DNA of 19,309 nucleotides, from positions 1 to 19,309 of the IMG/VR virus record IMGVR_UViG_3300029725_000137. The stretch is one strand, 5' to 3'. Position numbers and translations under genes: made by a program. The notes beneath the pieces are model-generated. The model was not told where the DNA came from and did no database searches. It saw nothing but the letters and a program-made list of their open reading frames with translations. Source of the DNA: a virus. Positions 1-18,408 of the stretch are shown here, piece after piece. Position 1 is the stretch's first letter. Every line of letters starts with the position of its first letter.

Positions 1-2058
1 TCAGGGTAACTGGTTGATTTCCACGACAGCGGTCTGGGCATAGTGGTGGCCGACAAAAACCCACACTTGCCGGGGTTGCCCGGTCGTGTTGGGGGCAAGC
101 GTCAGGGTGATTTGGCCGCCGCCGGCTGGTATCTGCTCCGCGGATTGGCTGCACCATACGGCGGCGGGGTCATGCCCGCACATGGTATCGTTCAGCACAT
201 AGATAGCTTCGGAGAGGACGGAAGACGCCGTCAATGTCACGTCGCCGCCAGAGGCCGGCACTTCATGCGCAGAAGCCGTTACTTCCGGAACCGGTTTAGG
301 AGTCACACCCTCCATTACCGTGTCCTTCATGAGGACCCAGGAGTTGGTTATGCCCAGTGAGGGTGCATTGTCTATCCTTATCCCTCCCATACGGAGGCCC
401 GCCTGATAAGTCCCGCTGACTTCGTGTGCCTTGAATTTGGTTGTAAGGCATGCTGTGTTGCCGGCGCCCCAAAAGGAGGAAGCCATATCCATTACATATT
501 GCTTGTCCACAAACAAGGCCCAGCGATTGTAAATCTCCTGGTCATCGGGGTTGGGTGGCGTCATGGCCGCGGAGACGTAGGTAAAAGCCGGAGCCAATGC
601 CCAAACATAATGGGAATCTACCTTGAGGGGTCCGTAAAACGTCCCCCTTATCAAGGCCGACTTATTGCTTCCCAGATACCCCATAGGGTAGGTAGTGATC
701 TGATACGCCGGCACATTGTCGCCCCCTCTCGCTCCATTGACTGTATTGTTTTGCGGATACCTGTAATTTGCATTATCCCAGGCATAATCCACCCAGTGCA
801 CAGGATGTGAATAGCAGGACGCCAGCGGATCGGTAGTCGTAGCGTACCCCTGGGCAGTGCTGCCCAAGAGAACCGACACCTTGTCGGAGCCAAGTATCCG
901 CCAGACGCAAGCGGCAGCATATTCGTTATTTCTATTGTTGCCCATGTAATTGGCAAATTTCCATGATCCCGTGGATTTGCCGATAACAGAAACACCCCCT
1001 GCCGCCGTCATGGTTAATACCATATCGCACAAGTCGTTATTAAATACTCCCTTCTTTAGAGAGGCGTTAGCGGTAGCAATTGTGTAGCTTGTGTTCAACG
1101 ACTGGGCTTCCACCAAGGCGGTCACCCATGACGGAATGACGGATTCCAGAAAATAGTTGGCGCGGCTCCATTGGCCGGCAGCCGTCATGGTTATCATTCC
1201 CTCATAGGAAATGGCATTCTGCCCTGTGGCGGGCAGCGGCACACGGACTCCTTCGATTGCGGTGATCGTGGCGTCGTAGGTCTGCGGCTGCGTCCAGTTA
1301 TAAGACCCGTCCGGATTAACATCCCCGGTATCTCCTTTCTCGCCACGGGGCCCTTGGGGACCCTCCGGCCCCTCGGGTCCTTGCGGGCCGGCAGGACCCT
1401 GCGGTCCGGTTTCTCCAATGTCGCCTTTTGGTCCCTGCTCTCCGGTAGCTCCCTGAGGACCTTGAGGCCCTGCGTCACCCCTGGGACCCTGAGGGCCTTC
1501 GGGGCCGGTTTCGCCCGGTTCCCCCTGCGGGCCTGGTGGGCCTTCGGGACCGGCGTCTCCTTTGGGGATGGTAAACGACAACAGATAAGAGCCCGCTTCC
1601 GAGCCTTTCACGGCTTCCGCTGCGGCAGGAGTGCCAGGCTCGCCGGTAGTGACCCGGTCCACCGAAAGATTGAAATTCTCGGCGTACTTCTTGGCCTGCT
1701 CCGCGTACCAGGCGGCGCTTGACGCATTATCAAGCACGACTTGCACGCATCCGCTTTCTTCCGGCAGCTGCACGACGACCGCACCCGCTACCGCCTGCTG
1801 CTCGTCCGGCAAGTCCGGCGTCACCCGGCCCGAAGAAACAAAGCATCCGTAGAGAAGCGGGCTTTCCTCGTTGCCGTCATCCATGAAGACATCGTAGGAC
1901 CACATGCCCGCGGGCACCGAGGCCCACGAAATCACGCCGTTGCCCTCGTCGTCACGGGAAAAGCCGAACTCGGCAATACCCGTCTTGAGGCGAACGGCTC
2001 CGCGCAGGGTGACGCCGCCCATATCGACGGGATCTCCCTGGAAATCCACCACGCGCAC
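1..2058 (-). CDS. Collagen-like tail fibre / receptor-binding protein with a C-terminal BACON/Ig-like beta-sandwich
   Basis: 685-aa ORF with GTG at 2058..2056 and TGA at 3..1. It has a long uninterrupted G-X-Y run ([37 protein letters not shown]...GEKGDTG). The last ~90 aa (..[57 protein letters not shown]) resemble a BACON-type domain. The frame stays open upstream and has an in-frame AGG at 2118..2116, a possible alternative start. Confidence 0.8.
1324..1560 (-). repeat. Collagen-like Gly-X-Y triplet repeat region inside the fibre gene
   Basis: About 26 consecutive GXY triplets in the translated product. At the DNA level this shows as a GC-rich ggn-ccn periodicity. Confidence 0.9.
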
Positions 2059-2125
2059 GACCAGTGACTGGTTGAGTCCCGTGACGGTCCGTATATCATA
2101 TTTGCCTGCCTGTTGCCTGAAGCGG

Positions 2126-2158
2126 AAGAAAAAGGGTTGCGGGGCGCTTTTGCGCCCC
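2126..2158 (-). terminator. Candidate intrinsic terminator after the 2172..2783 gene
   Basis: Perfect hairpin GGGGCGC-TTTT-GCGCCCC (2141-2147 / 2152-2158). On the minus strand it is followed by GCAACCC and then TTTTTCTT. The U-run is displaced 7 nt from the stem, so this is a weak or leaky terminator at best. Confidence 0.4.
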
Positions 2159-2171
2159 TTGGGTTGGTATG

Positions 2172-2783
2172 TCAGGAAGCGGGCGTCGTCGTCACATCCT
2201 GAATATTGGACGGCGTGGCCTGGTACTGACCCTTGTAATCCATCTCAAATTCAAACTGTGCGGACGCCACCGCGGTTGTGTGTTCCGGATCCTGCAGGAG
2301 ACGCAAGGCGCCATGCCCGATGTAGGTAAGGAATATCTCGCCAATATCGTTCTGATACCACAGTTGCAGGTAGCCTTCTATTTTATTGTCGCCGCCGTGC
2401 CCGATGGCGACGGCTTCCTTGCCGTTGGCCGGGGCTGCGCCCAGCGCAAAAGAGAGCTGGAAGTATTCCGGGGACATATCCGGCGTCGTGAAGGTCATGC
2501 GCTTGCCGGTAGTGGTGTTTTTGCGCTGAACACGGTAGCCTAGAGCTCCACCGTAGAAGCGCGTCACTTCTCCTTCCACCTGCGTAGCTACGGATTGGAA
2601 GGCTCCCAGCAAGCCAAAGCTCACCCAGGGAAATTCGGGGCCAGCCGTCGGATCGACGGGGGGCGCGGTAGGAGGCTCCGGGAACTGATAGGGTCCGGTA
2701 ACGTAGGAGGCGCCGCCTTCCTCGGTCACCTTGATGCCGTCAGGGAGAAAAATCGCCAGGACGCCCGTAATCTGCGGAGTCAC
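2172..2783 (-). CDS. Phage structural protein of unknown role; position suggests tail or baseplate
   Basis: 203-aa ORF with GTG at 2783 and TGA at 2174..2172. It has a Pro-rich segment ([19 protein letters not shown]) and is followed by a hairpin. An in-frame AGG at 2822..2820, five codons after the upstream gene's TAA, is an alternative start. Confidence 0.6.
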
Positions 2784-2837
2784 ATTGCGATTGCTGTAAG
2801 TAGGGTCGTAAGTATTAGGCCTGATGCTTGAATGGGT

Positions 2838-3032: not shown

Positions 3033-3226
3033 TTGAGTTCAACCAGGTTGAGGGTTTTCAGAGCTTCCGCGACGGGCGAGGGAAGTTCCAGGGTATCGGT
3101 TTTCATGAAGAGGCTGATGACCAGCCCTCCATCCAGTTCTGTTTTCGTGCTGACGACGCGGACGGTCACCTTGTCCTGGTGATCCCCCTGGTCTTTTTGC
3201 TGTTTATTTTTTGGCGTTCTGCTCAT
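3029..3226 (-). CDS. Small phage protein, 65 aa, with a basic N-terminus
   Basis: ATG at 3226 overlaps the 3' end of the upstream gene by 23 nt. It sits in the late operon. Confidence 0.55.
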   Translation of the reverse strand: MSRTPKNKQQKDQGDHQDKVTVRVVSTKTELDGGLVISLFMKTDTLELPSPVAEALKTLNLVELK

Positions 3227-3734: not shown

Positions 3735-4396
3735 GATTCGTTTCCGATTTGGGTGAGGTATGTTTCCGCGGCGCGCTGCGCCATTTGGTCCATCGTCGGC
3801 AGGATGCCAGGAGTAGGAGCAATCGTTACTTCCCGGCACAGGATATAGAGGACGTCTCCTGTTTTCGTTCCTTTGCTGAAAAGCTTGCGGGCCGCTTTCT
3901 TCCCGGTGGAGGACTGGGCTGTCTTGAGAATCAGGACACCGGTTACATTTCCATTCCGTCCTCCATTTTTGGAGGGGATGAATTGCAAGTCCTCTTTGCG
4001 GAAGCCTGCGCTGTAAATGCTTCGGGTCCCTCCATGCCCTCGTGGCGCGTTGATGGTGGGGATGGCGAGGTTCTGAATCGGCTTGCCGGTGACTTCCGAA
4101 GTGCGTCCGGTGGGCCGCAGCGGGCCGCCCAGGTAGCCCTGCGTGCCTATCCAGTGCAGGCCGATGCCGCGCCAGGCAATGGAGACGCTGACGCCTTCGG
4201 CGGTTTCTTCCATGCTGGTGGCGTCCGCCGCGGCGTCGTAGTAGTCCTTGCCCTGCTGGCGCAAGGTTTGCTGAATCATCAGACTGAGGGCAACGCCCGC
4301 CTTGCGGATGGCGGTCTTGTGCAGGGCGGCGGACGGCGCCATGTCGGCAAACGCGCGGTTAATCGCGGATTGGTCGATGTGGACGGTTACAGCCAT
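3731..4396 (-). CDS. Phage virion morphogenesis-type protein, function uncertain
   Basis: I start this gene at MAVTVHIDQSAINRAF.. (ATG 4396..4394), 10 nt overlapping the upstream TAA (4389..4387). The Arg-rich N-terminal extension in the track ORF (to 4573) looks non-coding. Confidence 0.6.
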   Translation of the reverse strand: MAVTVHIDQSAINRAFADMAPSAALHKTAIRKAGVALSLMIQQTLRQQGKDYYDAAADATSMEETAEGVSVSIAWRGIGLHWIGTQGYLGGPLRPTGRTSEVTGKPIQNLAIPTINAPRGHGGTRSIYSAGFRKEDLQFIPSKNGGRNGNVTGVLILKTAQSSTGKKAARKLFSKGTKTGDVLYILCREVTIAPTPGILPTMDQMAQRAAETYLTQIGNES

Positions 4397-5523
4397 TTGA
4401 CGGGTAAAACGTAAGGGGTTGACAGTTCCACATTGAGGGCTCCGGCGACGTCTTCCACTTTCCTGACGTGCCCGGAGGTAATGGGATAGGTGAATTCCCC
4501 CTCTTCCTTTGGGGAAACGGGGATATACTGGCGGGAGGACGCGGCGGCCACGTCTGCGGGCCGGGCGTACCAATCACCTTCCGGCTCGGAAGCCAGACGG
4601 TCCAGCAGGCGGTCGAGGTAAAGTGATGCCAGCGTTCCGGCCACGGCTCCCCCGGCTGCCGCCAGACGGAACGCCTGGGCCTGGCGCAAGGGGATCTCTT
4701 CTGGGAAATCCCCGGACAGGACTTCCGCCAGTTCCGCGTCCGTGTAAGGGCGCGTCCCGTTCGGGTCGGTGTAGGTAAAGGTGGTATTGCGGTCGTTCTC
4801 GGTTTTAACACGCACGGCGTCTTTCAGGATGCGGCGGATCTTCTTTTTATTGGCGTTCGTGATACTTATAGTATTGCTTTCCAGAGTGGCGTTGAAGCTG
4901 GCGGGAGCGAGACGGACGCGGGAAACCTCCAGTCCGGCCGCGCGGGCTTCTTCGGCTCCCACGGGGGCAATGTTCATGCCGGAAAGGTAATCGAAGGGAG
5001 GATAAGGCGTTCCGAAGCGCGAGAGGCGAATCCAGATGTCGGAGGCCGCCAGGGCGTAGCCGACGGTTTCGCCGCGGATGAAACCAGAAGAAACTGCCTC
5101 CGTGGCCTCGTTCTCCAATCCGGTTCTGGCACGGTTCCAGCGTTCAGCCCAGTAGCGCGGGTCTTCCCGGCCCTGGGAACGGTAAAATTTAAAGGCGGCG
5201 GTGTCGTCGTCCTGTGTCCAGTTATACCAGTTCCGGTAGCCGTGCGCCATGGCCGCATTGGTTTCCATGACGACCTGGATACGAAGCCAGGATGACAAAT
5301 CCTGAATGCCGCCCTGCCCCGTTGCCGGCGGTCGGTAGCCCTGCTGGCGCAGGGTTTCGCGGATGGACTGCTGCGCCTCTTCATAGCTCAGGGCGCCGGA
5401 GGCGACCTTCCCCGCCTTTTCCTCAAAGTCGGACAGGATAACGCCGGGCTCCACGCCGGACACGAAAAAGGCGCGTTCGGCGTAGTCGTTGGCGATCATC
5501 TCCATCTGGGCGGCGGTCATCAT
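4387..5523 (-). CDS. Putative minor head / head-morphogenesis protein, weakly Mu F / SPP1 gp7-like
   Basis: 378 aa, with an ATGA overlap to the upstream gene at 5520-5523. The segment ..WLRIQVVMETNAAMAHGYRNWYNW.. resembles the (A)RTE..A...G motif of the Mu F family. That family assignment is from memory and low confidence. Confidence 0.55.
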   Translation of the reverse strand: MMTAAQMEMIANDYAERAFFVSGVEPGVILSDFEEKAGKVASGALSYEEAQQSIRETLRQQGYRPPATGQGGIQDLSSWLRIQVVMETNAAMAHGYRNWYNWTQDDDTAAFKFYRSQGREDPRYWAERWNRARTGLENEATEAVSSGFIRGETVGYALAASDIWIRLSRFGTPYPPFDYLSGMNIAPVGAEEARAAGLEVSRVRLAPASFNATLESNTISITNANKKKIRRILKDAVRVKTENDRNTTFTYTDPNGTRPYTDAELAEVLSGDFPEEIPLRQAQAFRLAAAGGAVAGTLASLYLDRLLDRLASEPEGDWYARPADVAAASSRQYIPVSPKEEGEFTYPITSGHVRKVEDVAGALNVELSTPYVLPVKWL

Positions 5524-5996
5524 CGGTAGGTGCTTCTCATGGGGTTGAACCAGGGGCGCTGAGTGAAGCGCGGCATCATGTAGGCGGGGTCCGCCGGGGC
5601 GGCGCCGTCTACGCTTTCCGGCAGCATTTCGCCTCGTGCATAGCGGGCCAGCATCTCATCGGCCGATTCAGCGGCTTTCTGGCGCGTTTCGGTCAGGTTG
5701 ATCTGGTAGCGCAGGTAAAGCTGCCGGATGATCAGCGGCCACGCCAGGGAGCGCATGCTCTGCGGGATGTCGTACATGCCGCTATTCTGGAGCGATTGCC
5801 GCAGGGCGAGGTTGTTGGCCAGCGCCCCGCGGATGGCCATGCAGACATCGTTGACCGCCTCCATCATGACGTCCCGGTAGTCCAGGCTGCGCAGCTCCCC
5901 GGCTTTCACCAGGGCGTCGCGCTCCGCAGTGTTGAGGCCGAGGAGTCGGTCGGCTTCATCCGTAGTGATGGTGGACCAGGCGGGAAAGGCGGACAT
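5520..5996 (-). CDS. Head-tail connector-position protein, DUF1320 / Mu gp36-like by position and size
   Basis: 158 aa, ATG at 5996, immediately downstream of the capsid gene. In Mu/B3-like head modules this is the usual place for gp36-like proteins. Confidence 0.5.
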   Translation of the reverse strand: MSAFPAWSTITTDEADRLLGLNTAERDALVKAGELRSLDYRDVMMEAVNDVCMAIRGALANNLALRQSLQNSGMYDIPQSMRSLAWPLIIRQLYLRYQINLTETRQKAAESADEMLARYARGEMLPESVDGAAPADPAYMMPRFTQRPWFNPMRSTYR

Positions 5997-6017
5997 GATG
6001 GAGGCGGGTTGGGTGGG

Positions 6018-6941
6018 TTAAGCCGTGGCCGTCGCGTCGATGCGGACGATGGCGGACGGGTTGGTCAGCTTGGTCAGCGAGTAGACGCGGTTGGTTACCA
6101 GCGTCAAAGCGGGCGTCGGCTTGTATTCCGTGATGACTTCGCGGCGGAGCTTGCCGGACAAACCAAACGTCTTGATGGCAGAGGCGTCGAACTGCGTCGG
6201 GGAGTCTTCCTTGTACAGGACATAGACTTCGTTCTCCATGATGGTCTTGGCGTCGCCGGAAGCGTCGCGGTAGGGCATGGCTGCGATGTAAATATCCCTG
6301 ATAGGCCGAATCAGCGCATTGCGGAGCAGGTCTTCGTTGAAGAGGCCGACACTGTTGAATGACACCACCTGTCTGGCAATGGGGTTGGCTCGCAGGAGCT
6401 GCCAGGCGTTGATGCCAAAGACGATGGTGTTAGGCATGTGTCCAGTCGCCGCATTGATGGACAGGATGGCATTATCCAGATCCGTCAGCGGATTCTTCTG
6501 TTCGTTGGCCCAGTCCCCGTAACCGGCTGCGGCAGGCAACTGGCTGGTGATGAGCTTGGCACGTTCATATTCATACGAGGTCACAAACTGTGATTCGATG
6601 AGCTTGTATTCCGCCAGGGTGATAGCCTGCGCCTTTTCGCGGTTGACGCCCAGCAAGGCGTCCGGAATCGGCAAGGTTAAGCCGTACCCCTGAAGGGTGT
6701 CGGTTTCGTTCCTGCCGCGCAGGACGGTCTGGCGGGGAGGTTCGCCCGGTCCCACCTGGATCGGCTGGACCGTAAAGGCAGATTCCGTGTCCCAGACCTT
6801 GTACTGGAAATTGAGGTCGTAAACCGGGACGATCGGCGCAATGCGGCTGATAATGGAGTTCTCTTCGGTGTTTCCGGAACCCGCAGAATAAGCGGTCAGA
6901 ACATCGGTGAACTGGACGGCTGAGCAAAATGGAGTAGCCCT
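6018..6941 (-). CDS. Major capsid protein, lambda gpE-like family, with proposed AGG start
   Basis: The track ORF is 6018..6755, starting at GTG. The same frame is open back to the TAA at 6965..6963. The upstream part reads [AGG]ATPFCSAVQFTDVLTAYSAGSGNTEENSIISRIAPIVPVYDLNFQYKVWDTESAFTVQPIQ.., which looks like genuine capsid N-terminal sequence. No in-frame ATG/GTG/TTG lies in 6756-6962, and there is an in-frame AGG at 6941..6939. This start gives 307 aa versus an implausible 245 aa. The gene sits after the protease and the decoration-position gene. Confidence 0.7.
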   Translation of the reverse strand, partial: RATPFCSAVQFTDVLTAYSAGSGNTEENSIISRIAPIVPVYDLNFQYKVWDTESAFTVQPIQVGPGEPPRQTVLRGRNETDTLQGYGLTLPIPDALLGVNREKAQAITLAEYKLIESQFVTSYEYERAKLITSQLPAAAGYGDWANEQKNPLTDLDNAILSINAATGHMPNTIVFGINAWQLLRANPIARQVVSFNSVGLFNEDLLRNALIRPIRDIYIAAMPYRDASGDAKTIMENEVYVLYKEDSPTQFDASAIKTFGLSGKLRREVITEYKPTPALTLVTNRVYSLTKLTNPSAIVRIDATATA

Positions 6942-6974
6942 TGTTCTTTGTCTTTCTATTGATTAGTGTTGATG

Positions 6975-7406
6975 CTACACAGCTGCGACCTGGTAGGAGG
7001 GGACGAATCCGATTTCCACCATGCCCTGTTCCCACTGGGCGTGGATCACGCGGGCATAGACAGTTTCTCCGCTGGCGGCGGCCTTCCATGCTCCGTTGGC
7101 CGTGATGGTGAGGGGCGTTCCGGCGTTGATCGTGCCCGGCGTGTCGGAAAGAGCTGCCTTGATCAGGCCTGCATACATGCCGACGAGAGCGGCGACGCAG
7201 GTTCCCTGGTTGGGCTGCCCTTGCAGGACTACGCCGAGCAGCTGTGTCTGCGTAGGGATGGTGGACAACGGCGTCCCGATAAACTCGGGGATGTCCGGGT
7301 TGGCGGTCAGCGCCACGACGGTTCCTTCCTGTCCGCACAGGTCAACACCCTCCGGGGTGTTGAAATAGACGATGGCGCTTTTCTGGGTTACATTGAGTGA
7401 TGGCAT
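6975..7406 (-). CDS. Head decoration-position protein, DUF2190-like
   Basis: 143 aa with ATG at 7406 and TAG at 6977..6975. It lies between protease/scaffold and major capsid, the position lambda D occupies. Confidence 0.55.
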   Translation of the reverse strand: MPSLNVTQKSAIVYFNTPEGVDLCGQEGTVVALTANPDIPEFIGTPLSTIPTQTQLLGVVLQGQPNQGTCVAALVGMYAGLIKAALSDTPGTINAGTPLTITANGAWKAAASGETVYARVIHAQWEQGMVEIGFVPSYQVAAV

Positions 7407-7426
7407 TGGTTTGTATCAGGTTGGGG

Positions 7427-8542
7427 TTATCGTTCGGAGGTTACAATGTAGCCTTCTTCGGTGGCTTTCTGGAAAGCGTCGTACCGCTTCATGCCGCCCT
7501 TCATCAATTCGTCCACGCGGTTCCGGAATCCGTCGATGGATTCCTTTTTGCGGAACGGATTGGGCGGCGCCTGGGTGGCACGGCGGTTCAAGGACGTTCT
7601 TCCAACTGGATTGCGGCGGCTTTCGTCAACAACGTCATGCGGCGGCTTTGACTTCGCGGACCGATTGAGAGCCTTGACAAAGGCGCCCAGTGCGGCGGGG
7701 CTTTCCCGGAGAGAGTTTTTCAGCTCTTCCCGGCGTTCTTCCGTAAACTCCTCGCGTTCTTCCTCGTCCAGTGCGTTTTCATACGTACTGACGGCTTCGT
7801 CCACTTCGGCGTTCACGGCATTCTTCTCTCTCTTTTCCAGATCGAGAAGTTCATCCACGCGGCGGAGGATTTCCCTGGACATGTCATCGGTTCCGTCAAA
7901 TTCGACGTCCAATTTATCGAGCAGGGAATCAAACAGAGCCCGCTGGGCTCGGTCCATTTCCTTCGCCGGGTATTCTTCGGCGTTTTCTTTCATCGTTTTG
8001 TCTTGGTTGGTTTCCCCCTCTTCGGGGCTTTTGTTTTCGCCCCCGTCCTTGTCGGGGGAAGTCTGTCTATTGATGAGCGGGCGCTTGCCCTTGATGCGCG
8101 GACGGTTGGTCAACGCGAATCCCGTCAGGCGAGTGGGAGTGTAAACGCCGTCCTCCAAGGTCATGCCGTCCATATACTCCGTAGACGATTGCGTGTACTC
8201 CTTGTCGATAAGCATTTGCAGTCCGCGTGGCGTCCAGTCGATAAAACCGTACAATTCCAGGCTGCCTGACGGATCCCGGTAGGTATCCAGTTTTTTCAGC
8301 CAGCCCAGGGCCCGCGTATCGCGGCTGACGTCATGGCTGAGGTGATCGCCGTCAATCAGCATGCCGGGGCCATCGAAAGTGCGGGAATTGAATTCATCCA
8401 CCATTCTTTGAATGACCTCTTCATCAATGCGAAGGAGCGCGGGTCCTTCCCCGTAGTCAACCTCGTGATCGCCGGATTTCTCGATGTGATACCATCCGTT
8501 CTTCGGATCGCTTAAATCATTGATTTGTTTTGTACTGATCAT
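7427..8542 (-). CDS. Mu-like prophage protein I family head protease fused to an acidic scaffold-like C-terminal half
   Basis: N-terminus ..NGWYHIEKSGDHEVDYGEG..LLRIDEEVIQRMVDEFNS..GMLIDGDHLSHD.. matches the Mu gpI protease family pattern as I recall it. The C-terminal ~190 aa is highly charged and coiled-coil-like (scaffold-like). ATG at 8542 overlaps the portal 3' end by 26 nt. Confidence 0.7.
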   Translation of the reverse strand: MISTKQINDLSDPKNGWYHIEKSGDHEVDYGEGPALLRIDEEVIQRMVDEFNSRTFDGPGMLIDGDHLSHDVSRDTRALGWLKKLDTYRDPSGSLELYGFIDWTPRGLQMLIDKEYTQSSTEYMDGMTLEDGVYTPTRLTGFALTNRPRIKGKRPLINRQTSPDKDGGENKSPEEGETNQDKTMKENAEEYPAKEMDRAQRALFDSLLDKLDVEFDGTDDMSREILRRVDELLDLEKREKNAVNAEVDEAVSTYENALDEEEREEFTEERREELKNSLRESPAALGAFVKALNRSAKSKPPHDVVDESRRNPVGRTSLNRRATQAPPNPFRKKESIDGFRNRVDELMKGGMKRYDAFQKATEEGYIVTSER

Positions 8543-9881
8543 CGTAAAACCCTTTCATCAGCGCATTGTTGATAAGCTCCCTCAATTGTTCAAAAGCGTC
8601 GGGCGGTATACCGTTATCTTCAGCTTCCCGGTTGGATGCTGCCACAGGAGGAGCGGCATCCCGGGTGTCCTCGACGGACATGCCGAGCTTCTCTTCAACT
8701 TCCGTCTTTTCCAACCGCACGCCTCCATCCGCAAGAGCGGCGATTTCTTCCGCCTTCTGCAGCGGCGTCTGGACGGTATCAAAGGTGATCTGGAGTCGGG
8801 CCAGCGGTTCTGCGTCTCCCAGCACAAGAGGATTAACGGCAGTATTAAAGGCTTCCGCCACTTTGCTGCACACAGCGGACACGACGGAATTCCAGCTATC
8901 TGTATGCGCTCCCCCGGCCAGGGTGCCGGATCCCGATTCGTTCAACACAGTCAGAGTGCCGGCCATCACAAAGCGTACCTGATCCTTGTCGGCAAGATTG
9001 ATACGCGAGAGGAAATAGTTTTCATTGATGGAGGATGCCTTGAGGGGTTCCGCCGTACATCCGGGAGGCAGGACGACGGATGCACCTGACTTGAGTTCTT
9101 CGCAGGCGCGCTCAAGTGCGTCCATGACAGCGGCGCTTGCTTCTTTGGGAGCCGTGATGATGACCGGGGCGGACCCGTAGCGGTCCATGTGGTTGTCCCA
9201 GACAATCTTGGCATGGTTGCGCTCAAAGGAGGCTCGGGAGGCAGGAAACAGGATGGGATAGGGATGCTCCATCACCACAAGCGTTTCCTCTTCCACGCTT
9301 TCTCCCGTATCCACGCCAATATGGCATTGTGGGTTAAACTGCCACTCGTTCAGCTCGCCCGGGCGCACCCAATAACGCTGCGGAATAAATTCAAACCTCC
9401 GGCCCCAGGCGTCCTCGATAAATTGCAAATGGGCGTAGCCGTAAAATACCGCGGAAGCGAGTTGCCCAAACGCCGGCTGAAGGCCGTTAATGGAGTTGTA
9501 GAATTCTTCCAGGGCGTTTTTCTGTCTCTGTGCTTCGGGGCTGTCATTGGCGGCGTCAATTTTCCATCCCTGCATGGACACGCTTTCAATCATCCGCGAA
9601 TAGAGCATGCCCAGCATGCCGTCCGAATAGATTACCTCGTCCCAAATGAGCATTTGCCGCGCAAAGGCTCCCCTTCTGGCCTCATTGCGGGCATCAATGA
9701 GGGTTTGCAGGCCCGCCCCCTGGAGAGGATCCCAGTATTCAAACCATTGGGGGCGGCCAGGAAGGCGGCTCCGGTCCGTTAAGGCGCGTCGGGCAAGGTC
9801 TGTCTCAAGCTCCTTGATTCTGGTCTCTTGTTGTGCGACCAGCTTGGGAGCGTTGATGATATTTTTGACGGCGTTTAACCT
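8517..9881 (-). CDS. Portal protein, Mu gp29 / DUF935-like, with proposed AGG start
   Basis: The track ORF is 8517..9653 (ATG). The frame continues open upstream and reads [AGG]LNAVKNIINAPKLVAQQETRIKELETDLARRALTDRSRLPGRPQWFEYWDPLQGAGLQTLIDARNEARRGAFARQ-MLIWDEVIYSDG.., with no in-frame ATG/GTG/TTG. An in-frame AGG lies at 9881..9879, 23 nt downstream of the tRNA 3' end. This start gives 454 aa, a typical portal size. Confidence 0.72.
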   Translation of the reverse strand, partial: RLNAVKNIINAPKLVAQQETRIKELETDLARRALTDRSRLPGRPQWFEYWDPLQGAGLQTLIDARNEARRGAFARQMLIWDEVIYSDGMLGMLYSRMIESVSMQGWKIDAANDSPEAQRQKNALEEFYNSINGLQPAFGQLASAVFYGYAHLQFIEDAWGRRFEFIPQRYWVRPGELNEWQFNPQCHIGVDTGESVEEETLVVMEHPYPILFPASRASFERNHAKIVWDNHMDRYGSAPVIITAPKEASAAVMDALERACEELKSGASVVLPPGCTAEPLKASSINENYFLSRINLADKDQVRFVMAGTLTVLNESGSGTLAGGAHTDSWNSVVSAVCSKVAEAFNTAVNPLVLGDAEPLARLQITFDTVQTPLQKAEEIAALADGGVRLEKTEVEEKLGMSVEDTRDAAPPVAASNREAEDNGIPPDAFEQLRELINNALMKGFYDDQYKTNQ

Positions 9882-9904
9882 GCGACTGAGACGGTGAGAA
9901 ATAT

Positions 9905-9978
9905 TGGTTGCAGGGGGAGGAGTTGAACCTCCGACACGGGGACAGGAACCCCGTATGATACCGTTTCACCACCCTGCG
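9905..9978 (-). tRNA. tRNA with anticodon CCU, formally tRNA-Arg(CCT), carrying initiator-tRNA-type acceptor and anticodon stems
   Basis: 74-nt cloverleaf folded by hand. Acceptor CGCAGGG/CCCTGCA has 6 Watson-Crick pairs plus a C1-A72 mismatch. Then U8 G9, D-stem GUGA/UCAU, D-loop AACGGUA, A26. Anticodon stem is CGGGG/CCCCG and the loop is UUCCUGU, with anticodon CCU corresponding to plus-strand agg at 9944-9946. Variable loop UGUC, T-stem GGAGG/CCUCC, T-loop UUCAACU, discriminator A73, and an encoded CCA. Confidence 0.9.
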
Positions 9979-9994
9979 ATTGAATATACATCAA

Positions 9995-10023
9995 TACATA
10001 TAGATATGTTGATATATTGTCAA
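9995..10023 (-). promoter_or_regulatory. Candidate sigma70-type promoter dedicated to the tRNA
   Basis: On the minus strand, TTGACA (10023..10018) is followed by a 17-nt spacer and TATGTA (10000..9995). This lies in a 47-bp AT-rich, partly palindromic spacer between the terL stop (10026) and the tRNA 5' end (9978). Confidence 0.45.
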
Positions 10024-10025
10024 CC

Positions 10026-11399
10026 CTAATACCTGCCGATGGAACGATTTCTTTTTGGTCTTGTGACATACCAGGCTCCAAGCTCCCTGACCAAGCCGCT
10101 GTGTTTTCGTGCATGCCACGCCATGACAAGAGCGTCGGCCCGGTCGGGAGAACGAACTCCACGCTTTGCCATGTCCTCCTTGCTCTCGATTTTGACACGC
10201 CCGATCGCGTCTGTCTGGACGCGCGGTGCGACCAGCTGTTCGATTGTGTCCTCGTCGATGTCGAGAATGAGCTCTTTTTCCTCGATCGCACGGGCGAGCG
10301 CTCTCCAGGCCTGGGCGCGCAGATTGACAAAGGCCTGCGTATCGTCGGACGGAAAGCCGCCCCGGTAGGAGTGTATCGGGAAGCCCTCGGCCCGGAAGTC
10401 GTCGATGATGGGGAGCCCGAGTCCATCACCGTCGGCAAAGATACTGTCGGCGGGAATGCCAAGCTCGGCGGCTTTGCGCCGGAACCGTCCGCGGGCTCCG
10501 ACGGTGTCGGGGGCTGACCAGTGGTCGGCAATGAAGAAGCGATTGCCCTGCCCGGCCGCAAAGACGTTTTCGTCGCCCCCGGCGGCGAAGTCAAAGCCGC
10601 CGCAGGTCTCCCCGGTGTCCAAAAAGGGAGGCGGGTTGTTGAGCAGCTCCATGATGGCGCGGCGGGAAATGACGGATTGCCCGTCAAGGTCCGTGAATTC
10701 GCCGAGGATGGCCGAGCGGTAGAAGGAGGACTGTTCGCCGTATTCTTTTTTCAGGCGTTCGGCCTTGCCTGGATCGTTGATTTCGATGTGCGGGCAATCC
10801 TCGTATTTAACGCGGATTTTGTAGTAGAGGGATGAATTTTTGTGGAAGCAGTCGTAAAAGGTTCCGGAATCGGCACCCGGCGACGAGGTGATGAACGCGT
10901 TGAAGAGCGTGCAGCGGGAAACAGCGGTGAAGATGGGGTCCGGGATGGTCTTGGCTTCATCGAGGACGTAAAAGACCGGGTCAACGTCGGGCGAGATTTT
11001 CGGGTGCCATCCTTCCGCGCGTCCGGCGTTGTCGGTGGAGAATCCCACGGCAAATCCTCCTTCCGGCGTGCGGATTTCGGTTTTGTTGAATGTCCAGCCG
11101 TCAAAGAAGGGGTTATCCATATAACGGCGAAGCGCGGGAAAGAGCTGTTTTTCTACCTGCATCCACGATGATGACGTGACTGGCACCTGACCCCGAGGAA
11201 AATAGGTAAGGAAACACAGGATTGCCGGCGCAATGGATAGGCTCGTCTTTCCCGATCCGTTCGGAGCAACCATGGCCACGCTTCGGCCTCCCAGCCTCAC
11301 CTTTCCGAGAAGCAACGCCTTGATGGCCTCGATTTGCCAGGGATAAGGATCGAGTCCGAGGATGTGACGGAGGAAGAAGCTGACGGGGAGATGATTCCT
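10026..11399 (-). CDS. terL: Terminase large subunit with proposed AGG start
   Basis: Walker A is APNGSGKT, Walker B-like is VFYVLDEA, and the C-terminal half looks like the nuclease domain (..DFAAGGDENV.., ..ADGDGLG.., ..SPDRADAL..). The track ORF starts at TTG 11315. The frame is open to the TAA at 11408..11406, and the upstream part reads [AGG]NHLPVSFFLRHILGLDPYPWQIEAIKA-LLLGKV... The PYPWQ motif, typical of TerL N-termini, lies upstream of the first canonical start. In-frame AGG at 11399..11397. Confidence 0.8.
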   Translation of the reverse strand, partial: RNHLPVSFFLRHILGLDPYPWQIEAIKALLLGKVRLGGRSVAMVAPNGSGKTSLSIAPAILCFLTYFPRGQVPVTSSSWMQVEKQLFPALRRYMDNPFFDGWTFNKTEIRTPEGGFAVGFSTDNAGRAEGWHPKISPDVDPVFYVLDEAKTIPDPIFTAVSRCTLFNAFITSSPGADSGTFYDCFHKNSSLYYKIRVKYEDCPHIEINDPGKAERLKKEYGEQSSFYRSAILGEFTDLDGQSVISRRAIMELLNNPPPFLDTGETCGGFDFAAGGDENVFAAGQGNRFFIADHWSAPDTVGARGRFRRKAAELGIPADSIFADGDGLGLPIIDDFRAEGFPIHSYRGGFPSDDTQAFVNLRAQAWRALARAIEEKELILDIDEDTIEQLVAPRVQTDAIGRVKIESKEDMAKRGVRSPDRADALVMAWHARKHSGLVRELGAWYVTRPKRNRSIGRY

Positions 11400-11405
11400 G
11401 CTCGG

Positions 11406-11921
11406 TTAAGGGTGGAGTTTGCCGGCAATGGTTTCCAGCGCGGTTTTCTCGTCTTCCTGCAGCTGGGCGAGCTGCTCGGGGTCCAGCGTGATTTTCCGTT
11501 CCAGCGGCGCCCCGGGAACGCCGGCGACGTCCTGGCGGACCCGGTCTCCAAATTTTTCGGGAGCGAAACGGGCAGCGACTTTCAGCCGGGTTTCAATGGC
11601 GAGCTTCTTGGCAGCGACGGAGGCGGATCCGCAGTCGGGGTCGAGGGCAACCTGGGCAGCGGCATCTGACAAAGACTGACACTCGTCGAGCATGGCTTCC
11701 GACTGCGCTTCCCGCGCGCGCTGAATGAGTTTACAAAACTCTTCCCGTTCGTGCCTCCATCTCCAGACAGTTAAAACCTCCGGCATGTGATCGTCCGAGC
11801 AAATGGACTTCATCGTTTCCCCGTTGGCTAAGCGAGAGGCTATCTCGGCAGCTAACGCCTCCGTATAGAGGCTGGGCCGTCCTATTTTCTTGTTGGTGGT
11901 AGGTGATTGCTTCTTTTTCCT
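11406..11921 (-). CDS. terS: Terminase small subunit with proposed AGG start
   Basis: The C-terminal part ..RAREAQSEAMLDE..AAKKLAIETRLKVAARFAPEKFGDRV.. matches a widespread TerS family pattern. The track ORF starts at ATG 11813. The frame is open to the TAG at 11930..11928 and reads [AGG]KKKQSPTTNKKIGRPSLYTEALAAEIASRLANGET-MKSICSDDHMPEVLTVWRW.., the classic HTH N-terminus (GRPS.YT.E.A..I..RLA.GES) of this family. No in-frame ATG/GTG/TTG is present, and there is an in-frame AGG at 11921..11919. Confidence 0.75.
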   Translation of the reverse strand, partial: RKKKQSPTTNKKIGRPSLYTEALAAEIASRLANGETMKSICSDDHMPEVLTVWRWRHEREEFCKLIQRAREAQSEAMLDECQSLSDAAAQVALDPDCGSASVAAKKLAIETRLKVAARFAPEKFGDRVRQDVAGVPGAPLERKITLDPEQLAQLQEDEKTALETIAGKLHP

Positions 11922-11929
11922 GCGGGTCT

Positions 11930-11959
11930 ACTCTAGAGGACAAGTGGCTAACAAATCAA
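11930..11959 (-). promoter_or_regulatory. Weak candidate late-operon promoter
   Basis: On the minus strand, TTGATT (11959..11954) is followed by an 18-nt spacer and TAGAGT (11935..11930). A transcription start there would fall 1-4 nt before the terS AGG, giving a near-leaderless mRNA. The match is weak. Confidence 0.25.
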
Positions 11960-11991
11960 GCACTCTGTTTGTTCATTCCTTTCTGGGGCCA

Positions 11992-12020
11992 TTGACAAAT
12001 CTGACCCTCTCACATATACA
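11992..12020 (+). promoter_or_regulatory. Candidate sigma70-type promoter for the plus-strand accessory block
   Basis: TTGACA (11992-11997), a 17-nt spacer, then TATACA (12015-12020). The GTG of the next ORF is at 12027, so the transcript would be leaderless or nearly so. Confidence 0.45.
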
Positions 12021-12026
12021 GATTTT

Positions 12027-12545
12027 GTGAAAAAGTGTCCTATATGCGGCAAGGATGTTCCGCCGCGCTACGGATCGCGGGAAAGAGTGTACTGCTCCCG
12101 CGCATGTCTCAAGGCACACTATGACGCCGCCTGGGAAACTATCACCTGCCCCGTGTGCGGAAAGGAATTCCGCGCTAAAAAACTCTTTCGGCGGAAACAT
12201 TGCTCTTATCCTTGCGCGAATGCAGCCCAGAAGGGGCGGAAAATCACGTCAGAAGCCTTTCAGGAGGCTTGCAAGCATCGGGGAGTTCCCGGCCCCAGGA
12301 AGCACCCCAGAACAGGGAAATTTGAGACAAATTGCCATGCAAAGATATGGCTGCTGGAATCCCCGGATGGAGAGAAAGTCACGGCTCGGAATCTCAAACT
12401 CTACATGATAGACCGGTACGGCGAAGAAAAGGGGAAAAAGGTCTATAAGCTCCTGGTTTGTGCTGCACAACGCTTCCGTAAATGCGGACATGGCGGCGGC
12501 GCCGGATGGCGGGTACTTGCCGCCCCTGCCGTCCCGAAGGAATAA
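12027..12545 (+). CDS. Tandem zinc-ribbon (FCS/TRASH-like) protein with a C-terminal phage DNA-binding-like tail
   Basis: 172 aa starting at GTG. It has two copies of CPxCGK-x(11-13)-(Y/H)CSxxC: CPICGKDVPPRYGSRERVYCSRAC and CPVCGKEFRAKKLFRRKHCSYPC. The C-terminal ..CHAKIWLLESPDGEKVTARNLKLYM...GWRV resembles tails seen on phage homing-endonuclease-like ORFs. That resemblance is from memory and low confidence. Confidence 0.6.
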   Translation: MKKCPICGKDVPPRYGSRERVYCSRACLKAHYDAAWETITCPVCGKEFRAKKLFRRKHCSYPCANAAQKGRKITSEAFQEACKHRGVPGPRKHPRTGKFETNCHAKIWLLESPDGEKVTARNLKLYMIDRYGEEKGKKVYKLLVCAAQRFRKCGHGGGAGWRVLAAPAVPKE

Positions 12546-12576
12546 AAAAGGGCAGCCCCGAAGAACCGCCCTTTTT
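12544..12576 (+). terminator. Candidate bidirectional-looking intrinsic terminator
   Basis: An A-run (12544-12549) precedes stem GGGCAG (12550-12555) / CCGCCC (12566-12571), which has one mismatch and a 10-nt loop. It is followed by TTTTT (12572-12576), directly after the stop of 12027..12545. Confidence 0.45.
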
Positions 12577-12746
12577 AAGGGAATGAGCGTTTCCGCTCGT
12601 GCTGATCTTGTGATCGTTTTAATCCACAGCCCCGGAGGGCTGACGTGTTCCTAGAAAGAACAAATTACTTCTCTCATATTTTGCGCCAGACCGCAAGCAA
12701 AAACGGAATGACAACTTTTTTCACCTTTTTTCATTTTTTCTCTTGC

Positions 12747-12769
12747 GTTACTATAAATTTTATAGTAAC
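12747..12769. promoter_or_regulatory. Perfect 23-bp palindrome, a candidate operator, in the AT-rich promoter region of the acidic-protein gene
   Basis: GTTACTATAAA-T-TTTATAGTAAC has 11-bp arms, all 11 positions complementary. It contains TATAAA/TATAGT -10-like hexamers and lies 75 bp upstream of ATG 12844. Confidence 0.5.
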
Positions 12770-12843
12770 TTAATTTTGTTGACGGGAGGTAAGGGACCGA
12801 ACGAAGACATAATCCAAACAACAAAACTAGAAAGAACAAGACA

Positions 12844-13167
12844 ATGAACGATAACAAAATCATCACCACGGAAGACGGAGAAGAAATCAACCTGACCGCT
12901 CTTGAACGTGAATTCGGCAGCTACGACTTTGAAGGCAAGACCTATTATGCAGCGCGCCAGATGGAATACACCAACAGGGTTTTCCCTGGCTCCTACGCGG
13001 ACAAATACGAGGACGGCAGCTACATGGAAGAATGGTCTGCTCCTGGCTATGATGCAGAAGGGAACAAGGTTGAAATCTTCATGGCCTTTGAACAAATGAC
13101 GGGCGAAGAAATTGACGGAGAAAACCTCAACTGGACGCAGGACGCTTCCCGCGTTGAAGCTCGCTAA
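12844..13167 (+). CDS. Small, strongly acidic protein (107 aa), function unknown
   Basis: ATG start. By my count there are about 25 D/E versus 9 K/R. It has its own AT-rich upstream region and a downstream hairpin. Confidence 0.65.
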   Translation: MNDNKIITTEDGEEINLTALEREFGSYDFEGKTYYAARQMEYTNRVFPGSYADKYEDGSYMEEWSAPGYDAEGNKVEIFMAFEQMTGEEIDGENLNWTQDASRVEAR

Positions 13168-13176
13168 ATAACCCCC

Positions 13177-13204
13177 AGGGGCGGCAAAGCCGCCCCTCCT
13201 TTCT
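13177..13204 (+). terminator. Candidate terminator or attenuating hairpin
   Basis: GGGGCGGC-AAA-GCCGCCCC (13177-13195) followed by TCCTTTCTC. The U-tract is poor, and the next ATG is only 5 nt further on, so it is probably leaky. Confidence 0.4.
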
Positions 13205-13208
13205 CACT

Positions 13209-14513
13209 ATGACCGCACAAGAATTTATCGACTGGCTTCAAACTGCCAACAATCTTCCAAATCCTACCCAAGCTGTAAAAAGGGCCGCGCAGATGATGCG
13301 GGTGACGGAAGATGTTATTTGGAAATGGTTAAATACTAAAAAACCATACCCCACGCCTGAATACATGCAATTACTCATGGATTTATTGCATGAGAAATAC
13401 CGAGAAAAGAGGTTTTACCGCATTCTTTCTCACGAACAGCGTGAAGAGATGCGGTCCATGTTGGGCAAAAAACCTGATCTGGAAATCGCCGAGCTACTCG
13501 GAATAGCGCGCGTCACGGTCCAGACTGAACGCTATAAATTAGGTATCAAAAAGTATTGCAGCCCTGAAGCAATCCGCATCCAACATGATGAAGAGCTTAT
13601 TGCAGTGCTCGGAAAAATTCCTGACTCGGAGTGTGCCAAGAAGTTTGGATACTCAAATTCCAGAGTAGCCTACCTTAGAAAGAAATTAGGGATTAAGTCA
13701 TATAAGGGGCCGCGTAAACCCCGTCAGCCACGAGACCCAAATAAACCACACAAGAAAAAAGAGTATCCCGAAGAGTTAATTAACATGCTTGGAAAGACCC
13801 CGGATGATGAAATTGCTAAAAAATTCGGTTATTCCAAGGCAGGAATTGCGCTTATTAGAAAAAAGATGGGCATTCCATCATTACCTGATACTAAATTCCC
13901 CAAAATGAAACGCGAAGAAATGCTATCTATGCTTGGAAAATTTCCTGATAGCGAAATTGCTGAAAAGTTTGGAATATCGCTTAATTTTGTAGCGCGGAAC
14001 CGTAGAAAATTAAAAATTGCTCAAGCTCCATACTCCCCCATTAAGGATGCGGACAAGGATATGATTCTTAATTTATTGGGAAGAGTATCAGATTTAAAAA
14101 TTTCAAAAAAAACAGGGTACAGCCCATATGTAATTAAAAAATTTAGAGAACAGAACAAAATTAAGCCTTTCAATAAAAGCATTTTAGAAAGATTTTCACC
14201 GGACCAACGTAAAAAACTCTTATCTATGCTTGGGAAAGTTTATGATAGAGTAATAGCCGAAAAATTTAATATTGATAACGAGGTAGTAAGAAGAATTAGA
14301 CAGAAATTGAATGTTCCGGCATTACGTGAGGAAAAAAGCTTGCAAGAAACAATAGAAAGGGACGAATACATTAAATCCCTGCTGGGCACAATGACTGATA
14401 AAGAAGTCGCTAATAAAACAGGCAAATCAATACAAGTTATCGGAAAAGCAAGGAGAAAATTAAATATCCCGGCGTTTGATACAAGGGGTCGGTCTACAAA
14501 GAAACAATCTTGA
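13209..14513 (+). CDS. Multi-HTH DNA-binding protein with an N-terminal HTH plus 7 tandem GerE / sigma-70-region-4-like repeats
   Basis: 434 aa with 7 repeats of the pattern (E/D)x(M/L)(L/I)xxLGKxPDxEIAxKFGxSxxxVxxxRRKLGI(P/K). Examples are LGKKPDLEIAELLGIARVTVQTERYKLGI, LGKIPDSECAKKFGYSNSRVAYLRKKLGI, LGKTPDDEIAKKFGYSKAGIALIRKKMGI, LGKFPDSEIAEKFGISLNFVARNRRKLKI, LGRVSDLKISKKTGYSPYVIKKFREQNKI, LGKVYDRVIAEKFNIDNEVVRRIRQKLNV and LGTMTDKEVANKTGKSIQVIGKARRKLNI. The period is 48-60 aa. The DNA is visibly AT-richer than the rest of the window. Confidence 0.8.
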   Translation: MTAQEFIDWLQTANNLPNPTQAVKRAAQMMRVTEDVIWKWLNTKKPYPTPEYMQLLMDLLHEKYREKRFYRILSHEQREEMRSMLGKKPDLEIAELLGIARVTVQTERYKLGIKKYCSPEAIRIQHDEELIAVLGKIPDSECAKKFGYSNSRVAYLRKKLGIKSYKGPRKPRQPRDPNKPHKKKEYPEELINMLGKTPDDEIAKKFGYSKAGIALIRKKMGIPSLPDTKFPKMKREEMLSMLGKFPDSEIAEKFGISLNFVARNRRKLKIAQAPYSPIKDADKDMILNLLGRVSDLKISKKTGYSPYVIKKFREQNKIKPFNKSILERFSPDQRKKLLSMLGKVYDRVIAEKFNIDNEVVRRIRQKLNVPALREEKSLQETIERDEYIKSLLGTMTDKEVANKTGKSIQVIGKARRKLNIPAFDTRGRSTKKQS

Positions 14514-14537
14514 TCTTTCCAAGATAAAAAGCGCCCC

Positions 14538-14632
14538 TATACGAGATTCCAGGGGGTATACGAGATTCCAGGGGGTATACGAGATTCCAGGGGGTATACG
14601 AGATTCCAGGGGGTATACGAGATTCCAAGGCT
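14538..14632. repeat. Head-to-tail tandem array of a 19-bp unit, 4 perfect copies plus 1 degenerate copy
   Basis: The unit TATACGAGATTCCAGGGGG occurs at 14538, 14557, 14576 and 14595. A degenerate copy TATACGAGATTCCAAGGCT is at 14614. The array fills the convergent gap between the multi-HTH gene stop (14513) and the loader stop (14631-14633). Confidence 0.95.
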
Positions 14633-15353
14633 ATTTCCTGGGATGGTAGTTGATCTCGCGGTAGGACTGCCACTCGCACGGGATGGCGCCGCCTGTCATG
14701 TGCATCCGGGAAGTAATGGAGGGACCAAGACTCGGCTCGACGTCTTCCCCGATGAGATTGGAAATGACCACAGTAATTTTTCCGTCCTGGTGACGGCTGT
14801 CGATAAGACGGTCAATGGAATATTGAGAAAAATCCGATCTCTTGAGCTCGTGGAATTCGTCAATAACCAAATAGGTAGGACGCTTGAACGCCCTGGCAAT
14901 ATCATTTTCCCGCTTGGACTCCCGCAAATCAAGGCAGTAGTCATACGCTTTGACGTATTTGACGGACCTTCCGAGCCGCACCAGGCCGCGGGCCAGGGAT
15001 GTTGCCATCACAGTTTTGCCAGTGCCGCAGGGCCCATGAAGCGCAATGATTGCTCCGGACTTCCGAGCAAAGTCCGCTAAACGGTCTCTGGCGGCTTTCC
15101 ACGGGCTTTCTGCATCGTTTACCCTATCCAGAGCTAAAACGGCCATTTTGGGGAAGCCAGAGGCCAGCAAGAGGTGAAATTCTTCCTGGGCCTGTTGCAT
15201 GGCTTCCCGCGTGAGCCGTTCCTGCTCCACTTTGGCGTCAAGTTCGGGGTCGTCCGATGCGAGGGCCGAAAGCCTGTCCAGCAGGGCGTCGATAGACCCG
15301 TCTCCAAACATATCCCGCACGTTGTGCAAATTCCGTGATGTGTTAATATCCAT
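14631..15353 (-). CDS. DnaC/IstB-like AAA+ ATPase, a replicative helicase loader
   Basis: Walker A is HGPCGTGKT and Walker B is YLVIDEF. I start the gene at MDINTSRNL (ATG 15353..15351), preceded by GGAG 5 nt upstream. It overlaps the upstream TAA (15345..15343). The track's N-terminal extension overlaps the upstream gene. Confidence 0.8.
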   Translation of the reverse strand: MDINTSRNLHNVRDMFGDGSIDALLDRLSALASDDPELDAKVEQERLTREAMQQAQEEFHLLLASGFPKMAVLALDRVNDAESPWKAARDRLADFARKSGAIIALHGPCGTGKTVMATSLARGLVRLGRSVKYVKAYDYCLDLRESKRENDIARAFKRPTYLVIDEFHELKRSDFSQYSIDRLIDSRHQDGKITVVISNLIGEDVEPSLGPSITSRMHMTGGAIPCEWQSYREINYHPRK

Positions 15354-16104: not shown

Positions 16105-16135
16105 AATCAAAAAAGCGTCAGTTGGGGGTTGTAGT

Positions 16136-18401: not shown

Positions 18402-18408
18402 TTTAATT

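Follow-up and report, generated by a model that had tools for sequence, protein, structure and literature searches.

The stretch of DNA considered here, 19,309 nt long and referred to below as the window, comprises positions 1 to 19,309 of the IMG/VR virus record IMGVR_UViG_3300029725_000137. By protein search it is of an Akkermansia muciniphila prophage type; its late genes lie on the minus strand. The portal gene, as called, is an open reading frame (ORF) beginning at ATG 9653 (8517..9653, minus strand) and encoding a 378 aa protein of the DUF935 / Mu gp29 type. Upstream of this ATG and on the same strand there are 76 in-frame codons beginning with AGG (9654..9881), a short spacer (9882..9904) and a tRNA gene with a CCU anticodon (9905..9978). 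We address the position of the portal start, which would fall on this AGG codon, and the possible role of the adjacent tRNA in reading it, in the portal as well as in five further late genes.

Beyond ATG 9653 the portal frame stays open for 104 codons, up to a TGA within the tRNA gene, and this open upstream frame contains no ATG, GTG or TTG; the first canonical start after the TGA is ATG 9653 itself. The stretch from AGG 9881..9879 up to ATG 9653 comprises exactly 76 sense codons, as counted in an earlier sequence-only reading of this DNA, and the peptide quoted there, ..LIDARNEARRGAFARQ-MLIWDEVIYSDGML.., is the one obtained by translation. Given in-frame frequencies of start triplets of 0.053-0.077, a start-free run of 76 codons would occur by chance with P ~0.002-0.02; start-free runs of 70-149 codons were also found within other genes of the window. 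Thus, the run, being only mildly unusual in length, draws its weight from its position at a conserved N-terminus.

The upstream codons bear the marks of protein-coding sequence. We compared 38 distinct portal sequences, taken from 44 IMG/VR contigs, the window and one more relative, L046. For codons 2-76 the proportions of synonymous and nonsynonymous differences (pS and pN) were 0.36 and 0.056, with a ratio of nonsynonymous to synonymous substitution (dN/dS) of 0.12, while dN/dS of the remaining portal was 0.094. Codons 2-7, next to the AGG, already evolve as coding ones, with synonymous and conservative changes.

The sequence-only reading had likened the extension to a conserved N-terminal region of DUF935 portals spanning the ATG, and had named a match of homologues from MLIWDE onward only as the observation that would speak against the extension. 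The region does span the ATG: relatives at 45-87% identity align through the whole extension, with conservation from ..FNA(V/L)KNI(L/I)NAPKLVAQQETRIKELETDL.. on, and a portal at 27% identity (P0043) also aligns across it, with the W..W.PL motif still recognisable. The alignment with PHROG 113 (portal) sets in at profile position 58, 15 residues ahead of the Met; in the solved portal 9khx, chain positions 51-147 are aligned to query positions 67-163, straddling M77. Pfam PF06074 (Portal_Mu), which matches over the core domain with E = 2e-32 and 113 bits against a cutoff of 23.9, is the only one of the profiles starting at MLIWDE. We considered its boundary as a possible refutation of the extension and dropped it, as this model covers the core only and PHROG 113, 9khx and the homologues span the ATG. 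Judged by the substitution pattern and by these alignments, the 76-codon extension is translated. The complete portal coding sequence from AGG would then be 8517..9881 (minus strand; 454 aa, stop codon included in the coordinates); in relatives it has 453-454 codons counted from AGG.

The first codon of the extension behaves differently from an arginine codon. In the column of AGG 9881, AGG is present in 37 of the 38 distinct portals and in all of the 44 viral contigs (44/44); the remaining sequence, L046, where the tRNA is still present, has ATG at this place and not an alternative Arg codon. All 20 internal columns with invariant Arg (20/20) use two or more synonymous codons in the same 38 sequences. 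As none of them keeps one codon, the AGG is constrained as a nucleotide triplet, and by this codon comparison it is exchanged only with canonical start codons. We also considered the second in-frame AGG, 9674..9672, offered earlier as a less likely alternative start. Its column contains CGT (15), CGG (15), CGC (6) and AGG (2); lacking conservation in relatives, it was rejected.

The 23 nt that separate the 3′-end of the tRNA from the portal start (9882..9904, minus strand) form a non-coding, pyrimidine-rich spacer. A Shine-Dalgarno sequence is lacking there and AGG is absent from all three frames, so that AGG 9881..9879 is, as had been stated, the first AGG after the tRNA. Over the 44 loci compared the spacer is 15, 16, 20, 22 or 23 nt long and varies in sequence, and no canonical start is present between tRNA and AGG; the next canonical start downstream of the AGG is 33, 57 or 76 codons off, depending on the locus. 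The spacer region is predicted to be unstructured (minimum free energy -1.6 kcal/mol). On the comparisons made so far, almost certainly AGG 9881, rather than ATG 9653, is where the portal starts. The sequence-only proposal of this start codon is further supported by two points described below, the exchange between AGG, ATG and TTG and the initiator-type build of the neighbouring tRNA.

Gene callers disagree on this start: lengths of 378, 397, 414, 421, 454, 474, 478, 482, 484 and 493 aa are present among public calls for this portal (P0001-P0036). In the long calls the tRNA gene is translated as well; the short ones begin at internal codons. Terminase and head proteins are likewise truncated in public calls (429 versus 457 aa and 245 versus 307 aa, respectively).

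The tRNA gene (9905..9978, minus strand; CCU anticodon, initiator-type body, encoded CCA) is labelled by ARAGORN as Arg with anticodon CCT and is matched by Rfam RF00005 with 54 bits, the 1:72 pair being marked as non-standard. It is compact (74 nt; CGCAGGGUGGUGAAACGGUAUCAUACGGGGUUCCUGUCCCCGUGUCGGAGGUUCAACUCCUCCCCCUGCAACCA) and its ends, CGCAGGG...CCCUGCAACCA, are nearly equal to those of E. coli tRNAfMet. For reference we used E. coli tRNAfMet, in a sequence present at 100% identity in 5,426 of 5,426 E. coli genomes, together with tRNAs of control viral contigs. The tRNA of the window has the C1xA72 mismatch, A73, G2:C71, C3:G70 and G29-31:C39-41. Comparison of 16 distinct sequences of the family showed a cloverleaf paired at 100% with compensatory changes in 8 of 20 pairs, which indicates that the tRNA is under selection. 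C1, A72, A73 and the CCT anticodon are invariant among the 16, and CCU is the anticodon in all 89 tRNA copies of the family (89/89). The determinants recognized by formylase are kept as well: G2:C71 in 15/16 (G:U in the other one), C3:G70 in 16/16 and A73 in 16/16. The full block G29-G31:C39-C41 is present in 12/16, with G30:C40 invariant.

As to elongator features, the Watson-Crick 1:72 pair that would permit EF-Tu binding is replaced by C1xA72. C35 and U36, as in an elongator tRNA-Arg(CCU), are present with the invariant anticodon. In the D loop (AACGGUA) the position following G18G19 is occupied by U in 16/16 sequences and not by A20, which is a major identity element for arginyl-tRNA synthetase (ArgRS) in E. 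coli. Unlike E. coli tRNAfMet, the phage tRNA has G37. Having CCU in place of CAU, it is filed as an initiator-type tRNA with a reassigned anticodon rather than as a tRNAfMet; by its conserved identity positions, the tRNA 9978..9905 is one with an initiator-type body and a changed anticodon. The D-loop/T-loop elbow looks atypical in the family, with the copy in the window having a normal TTC.

Furthermore, we looked at how specific this combination is. Among 540 tRNAs of control viral contigs, C1xA72 was present in 110 of 138 with CAU anticodon versus 1 of 402 others, and this sole non-CAU case likewise had an initiator body, combined with CCU. In a set of 544 tRNAs, the 12 sequences closest to the phage tRNA were all initiator-like with CAU, at no more than 78% identity; compact 74 nt CAU tRNAs with an identical D arm were among them, at 78% identity. 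A pattern of initiator body plus CCT matched 28 contigs out of 2.9 million viral contigs, all from the phage family of the window, and only 2 of 185,579 species genomes, both looking like an ordinary tRNAfMet with an A35C change; normal tRNA-Arg(CCU) genes thus never fit the initiator pattern. With CAT as the anticodon the pattern matched at least 120 viral contigs, and three patterns for all other single-base anticodon variants gave no further match. The two tRNAfMet-like genes with CCT for CAT (CGGGCTCCTAACCCG) are in a Parcubacteria metagenome-assembled genome (L093, JABMPZ010000105.1, 41..115) and in Neobacillus piezotolerans (L094, NZ_QNQT01000019.1, 73..148), the latter in a tRNA cluster beside tRNA-Asp; they may be genuine variants, but also pseudogenes or artefacts of sequencing.

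Between the large terminase stop and the tRNA there is an intergenic block of ~45 nt (9979..10025, minus strand) conserved across loci. It holds TTGACA (10023..10018) and the inverted repeat ACATATC/GATATGT; a consensus scan placed a promoter-like site at 10012..9983. By these motifs the block is probably a promoter or operator of the tRNA and may be a regulated element for the tRNA, hence for all genes starting with AGG.

In some relatives the start codons may vary with the tRNA. In L045, a single contig with a 62%-identical portal, no tRNA is found within the 7 kb examined, and TTG (portal) and ATG (head protein) stand exactly at the AGG columns. In L240, a single contig of a lineage at 64% identity, the order tRNA(CCU), 26 nt spacer, AGG and portal N-terminus is kept; the database portal protein of L240 was called from an internal ATG.

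The more distant L241, known from a single Logan contig with a 45%-identity portal, carries at 2035..2110 a tRNA of initiator-like type, CGCAGGG...CCCUGCAACCA; its anticodon loop has 8 nt, AUCCCUUA, and ARAGORN assigns it a four-base anticodon, CCCU. Its portal start is probably a canonical GTG aligned with the start column of the family. Its large terminase and head genes have neither an in-frame canonical start nor an in-frame AGG; at their start columns we find cAGGTaac and cTGGGaca, with GGT and GGG in frame (sites 593..596, 5038..5041 and 2128..2131 were also flagged in this contig). Such sites may fit GGN or four-base starts, i.e. covariation of anticodon and start site, judging from this single contig. 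No second contig of the L241 lineage was found by a metagenome protein scan, a viral scan or a protein search, which returned the query only; a 16 nt DNA pattern made for this lineage gave only chance matches among the first 120.

The AGG start is not confined to the portal. A stop-to-stop frame scan of the window, compared with 45 longer loci, revealed the same signature at five further late genes: an AGG that is conserved and stands a few codons past a stop, with variable sequence in front of it and with coding-type conservation setting in at the codon after it. The portal start proposed from the sequence thus stood, but its scope had been understated, the portal being one of six such late genes in the window.

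The small terminase subunit (11406..11921, minus strand) would start at AGG 11921..11919, with AGG AAA AAG conserved and upstream sequence unrelated between loci. Its residues 19-130 match positions 1-105 of the Pfam profile Sf6_terminase; as the match begins at residue 19, a start at the first ATG (codon 37) would cut the domain. Six bases past its stop, at AGG 11399..11397, is the inferred start of the large terminase subunit (10026..11399, minus strand; PHROG 2), with AGG in 30 of 33 distinct sequences; ATG is found one codon downstream in L078, two codons upstream in L045 and within 1-2 codons in L240. The major head protein (6018..6941, minus strand; residues 13-264 matching positions 14-274 of PHROG 1005) would start at AGG 6941..6939; at this column 30 distinct sequences have AGG and 2 (L045 and L078) have ATG. 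A late gene with no assigned function (2172..2822, minus strand; 216 aa) has its candidate start, AGG 2822..2820, five codons past a stop and conserved in 29/29 distinct sequences, with the first canonical start 13 codons downstream and not conserved. The tail-fibre-like gene (1..2118, minus strand; PHROG tail-fibre families), which runs off the window end, would start at AGG 2118..2116; AGG is present in 30/31 distinct sequences, and the sequence upstream is variable with indels. In the isolated phage DTMo-2021a (CP084202, unannotated) AGG is present at all six genes (6/6).

Neighbouring late ORFs have a conserved ATG (8542, 7406, 5996, 5523, 4396, 3734 and 3032). ORFs of the early region (12212, 12572/12527, 13200, 16317, 17184 and others) were considered as genes with AGG starts and rejected, having no conserved N-terminal AGG. 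Shine-Dalgarno sequences, sought before late genes of both the AGG and the ATG class, were found in neither; lacking in both, they do not discriminate between the classes. The AGG start regions are predicted to be weakly structured.

We consider it quite likely that AGG 9881 is read in the ribosomal peptidyl (P) site by the adjacent phage tRNA(CCU) with an initiator body, the two forming an orthogonal pair that serves six late genes. On this view the phage tRNA would be the decoder of AGG starts. Encoded 23 nt upstream of the portal, the tRNA would be charged, probably formylated (the acceptor-stem determinants are present) and excluded from EF-Tu by C1xA72, and would pair with the portal AGG in the P site. 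Together, the initiator tRNA(CCU) and the AGG starts would make the phage's own initiation pair, used in the window by the small and large terminase subunits, the portal, the major head protein, gene 2822 and the tail-fibre-like gene 2118. With no Shine-Dalgarno sequence in either gene class, the choice of start site would rest on an unstructured leader and codon-anticodon pairing. One could speculate about a translational lock, with terminase, portal, head protein and tail fibre unmade until the phage tRNA accumulates. It seems probable, in a broader formulation, that we deal with a family of temperate phages having natural orthogonal initiation, where the tRNA(CCU) makes AGG the start of six genes for packaging and virion proteins and would act as a translational master switch of virion production, with non-Met N-termini being probable.

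Could AGG 9881 be read without such a tRNA? The host tRNAfMet(CAU) might read it inefficiently as a near-cognate codon, with the phage tRNA being an elongator Arg tRNA for AGG codons, in line with its ARAGORN label. The study bioRxiv 10.64898/2026.04.16.719103 cites low-level initiation at many non-AUG codons, AGG included, in E. coli; on the other hand, PMC11744186 puts initiation with a second-position mismatch at ~0.1-1% or less, and an abundant major head protein could hardly be initiated at such a very low level. An elongator role for the phage tRNA also fits poorly with C1xA72, exclusive to initiator-type bodies among the 540 control tRNAs, with the absence of A20 and with the lack of any ordinary tRNA-Arg(CCU) fitting the initiator-body pattern in 185,579 genomes. 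AGG makes up only 18 of 219 Arg codons inside late genes (8%), and such rarity argues against a codon-supply role of the tRNA. We regard near-cognate reading as unlikely. A start within the extension at some other non-canonical codon, again by the host initiator and with the conserved AGG kept for a different role, is somewhat less plausible still: the Ile codons 8-9 (ATC/ATT) or CTG at codon 14 might serve, as AUU, AUC and CUG are weak bacterial start codons, all sequences encode Ile at codon 8 (by ATC, ATT or ATA) and the CTG is present. Yet codons 2-7, in front of these sites, show coding-type evolution; the column exchanging with ATG and TTG in L046 and L045 is the AGG column, and the five further genes carry the AGG signature with no common near-cognate codon downstream.

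It is very improbable that the portal starts at ATG 9653 as called (378 aa), the 228 bases upstream being untranslated and kept for a function at the RNA or DNA level. The Portal_Mu model does begin at the Met of ATG 9653, and a 378 aa portal is present in several databases (P0015 and P0024); against this stand dN/dS of 0.12 with pS of 0.36 in the extension, i.e. a protein-coding pattern, and the homologous N-terminal residues in distant portals and in the solved one. Besides, in most relatives a TTG at codon 33 or 57 precedes the position of ATG 9653, and this Met is then not the first canonical start of the frame. We give next to no credence to the extension being reached from further upstream, be it from a canonical start inside the tRNA gene or by read-through or frameshift from the large terminase. 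Gene callers did produce database proteins of 474-493 aa (P0001-P0013), but canonical in-frame starts further upstream exist in some loci only and there lie inside the tRNA gene, the varying spacer length alters the frame between loci, an in-frame TAG stands four codons upstream of the AGG in three loci, and in the window the 28 codons that are open upstream of the AGG include no canonical start.

Several points weigh against AGG being read by the phage tRNA. All evidence is comparative, and the comparison of start codons with tRNA presence draws on one lineage lacking the tRNA, L045, seen over 7 kb only. Both terminase genes would depend on a tRNA whose gene lies downstream of them. Some tRNA features depart from the initiator type. 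U11:A24 is found in 16/16 family tRNAs versus A11:U24, a minor initiator determinant in E. coli, in E. coli tRNAfMet; in the anticodon stem, a G:C pair is replaced by A29:U41 in two of the 16 variants and by U31-G39 in two more. In the T loop (GGTCCAA), C55 takes the place of the near-universal U55 in most members of the family, and G19 is replaced by A, T or C in three variants. The CCU anticodon should make the tRNA a poor substrate for methionyl-tRNA synthetase (MetRS) and, with A20 lacking too, the charging enzyme is uncertain; charging with Arg is possible, given C35 and U36.

Some observations were made beside these genes. Upstream of the small terminase AGG (11922..11960, minus strand), in the window and in L001-L044, there is TTGAYT/TTGACN followed after ~17 nt by a TAnnnT-like hexamer, the end of which is 6-8 nt away from the AGG; the surroundings are unrelated between lineages. 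With the hexamers ending this close to the AGG, the late transcript may begin at or near it, being leaderless or nearly so. Before the tail-fibre-like AGG (2119..2165, minus strand) we observed a G+C-rich hairpin, GGGGCGC-AAAA-GCGCCCC, followed by GCAACC-CTTTTTCTTCCGCTTC. The latter resembles the tRNA 3′-end and T-rich spacer (GCAACCA-CCATTTTCTTTCGCTTCC...) of related loci; the whole may be a terminator or processing signal shared by regions upstream of AGG starts. In DTMo-2021a (L047, CP084202.1), an ORF of 730 codons at 28884..31076, in the part beyond the window end, has AGG at codon 7 and its first canonical start at codon 16, and may be a seventh gene with an AGG start. The only long plus-strand ORF of the window (13209..14513, 434 aa) shows several weak matches to helix-turn-helix families (HTH_23 and HTH_28) and lies in an island of low G+C content, 0.43-0.45 versus ~0.57 elsewhere; it is probably an acquired regulator or moron gene.

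A literature search revealed no natural initiator tRNA with a non-CAU anticodon and no account of start codons of Akkermansia phages. If true, initiation at AGG by the phage tRNA would be, as far as found, the first natural case of a sense codon turned into a start by a dedicated initiator tRNA, and would mean that the near-universal bacterial rule of AUG, GUG and UUG can be bypassed in nature. It would also explain five or more portal lengths (378-493 aa) as well as the truncated terminase and head calls, introduce a new principle of phage late-gene control, parallel to stop-codon recoding, and provide a source of a ready-made orthogonal initiation part. With the related phage DTMo-2021a and its Akkermansia host in culture, the proposal is directly testable.

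The portal itself is a member of the DUF935 / Mu gp29 family (PF06074; 9khx/9knu), with the homologous N-terminal region present; its relatives outside the tRNA-bearing lineages differ in starting at ATG, GTG or TTG. The pair proposed here would be the same trick as that built by synthetic biologists: in E. coli, pairing an engineered initiator tRNA(CCU) with AGG as the start codon led to 35- to 402-fold activation, and this combination ranked first among 12 pairs tested and outdid AUG in one strain (bioRxiv 10.64898/2026.04.16.719103), so that nature would have arrived at the codon pair best in E. coli. An amber initiator tRNA(CUA) carries formyl-Gln and is functional, according to PMC11744186. 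In common with the engineered initiator tRNAs (i-tRNA(CCU)/AGG, tRNA(CUA) and i-tRNA(AAC)), the phage tRNA combines an initiator body with an altered anticodon and a complementary non-AUG start; while those were made in the laboratory from E. coli tRNAfMet, the phage tRNA is natural, phage-encoded and 74 nt long, has U11:A24 and G37, and would have co-evolved with six AGG starts.

With the bacterial initiator tRNAfMet (E. coli metZWV/metY) it shares C1xA72, A73, G2:C71, C3:G70, the 3′-end ..GCAACCA and the G:C pairs next to the anticodon loop; it differs in CCU for CAU, U11:A24 for A11:U24, a short D loop and, in most members, C55. CrAss-like and Lak phages recode stop codons with phage-encoded suppressor tRNAs. 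There, too, a codon used in late or structural genes is given a new meaning by a phage tRNA, which is required for reading these genes properly; however, stop-codon recoding acts on stop codons at elongation, whereas the phage of the window would reassign a sense codon as a start at initiation.

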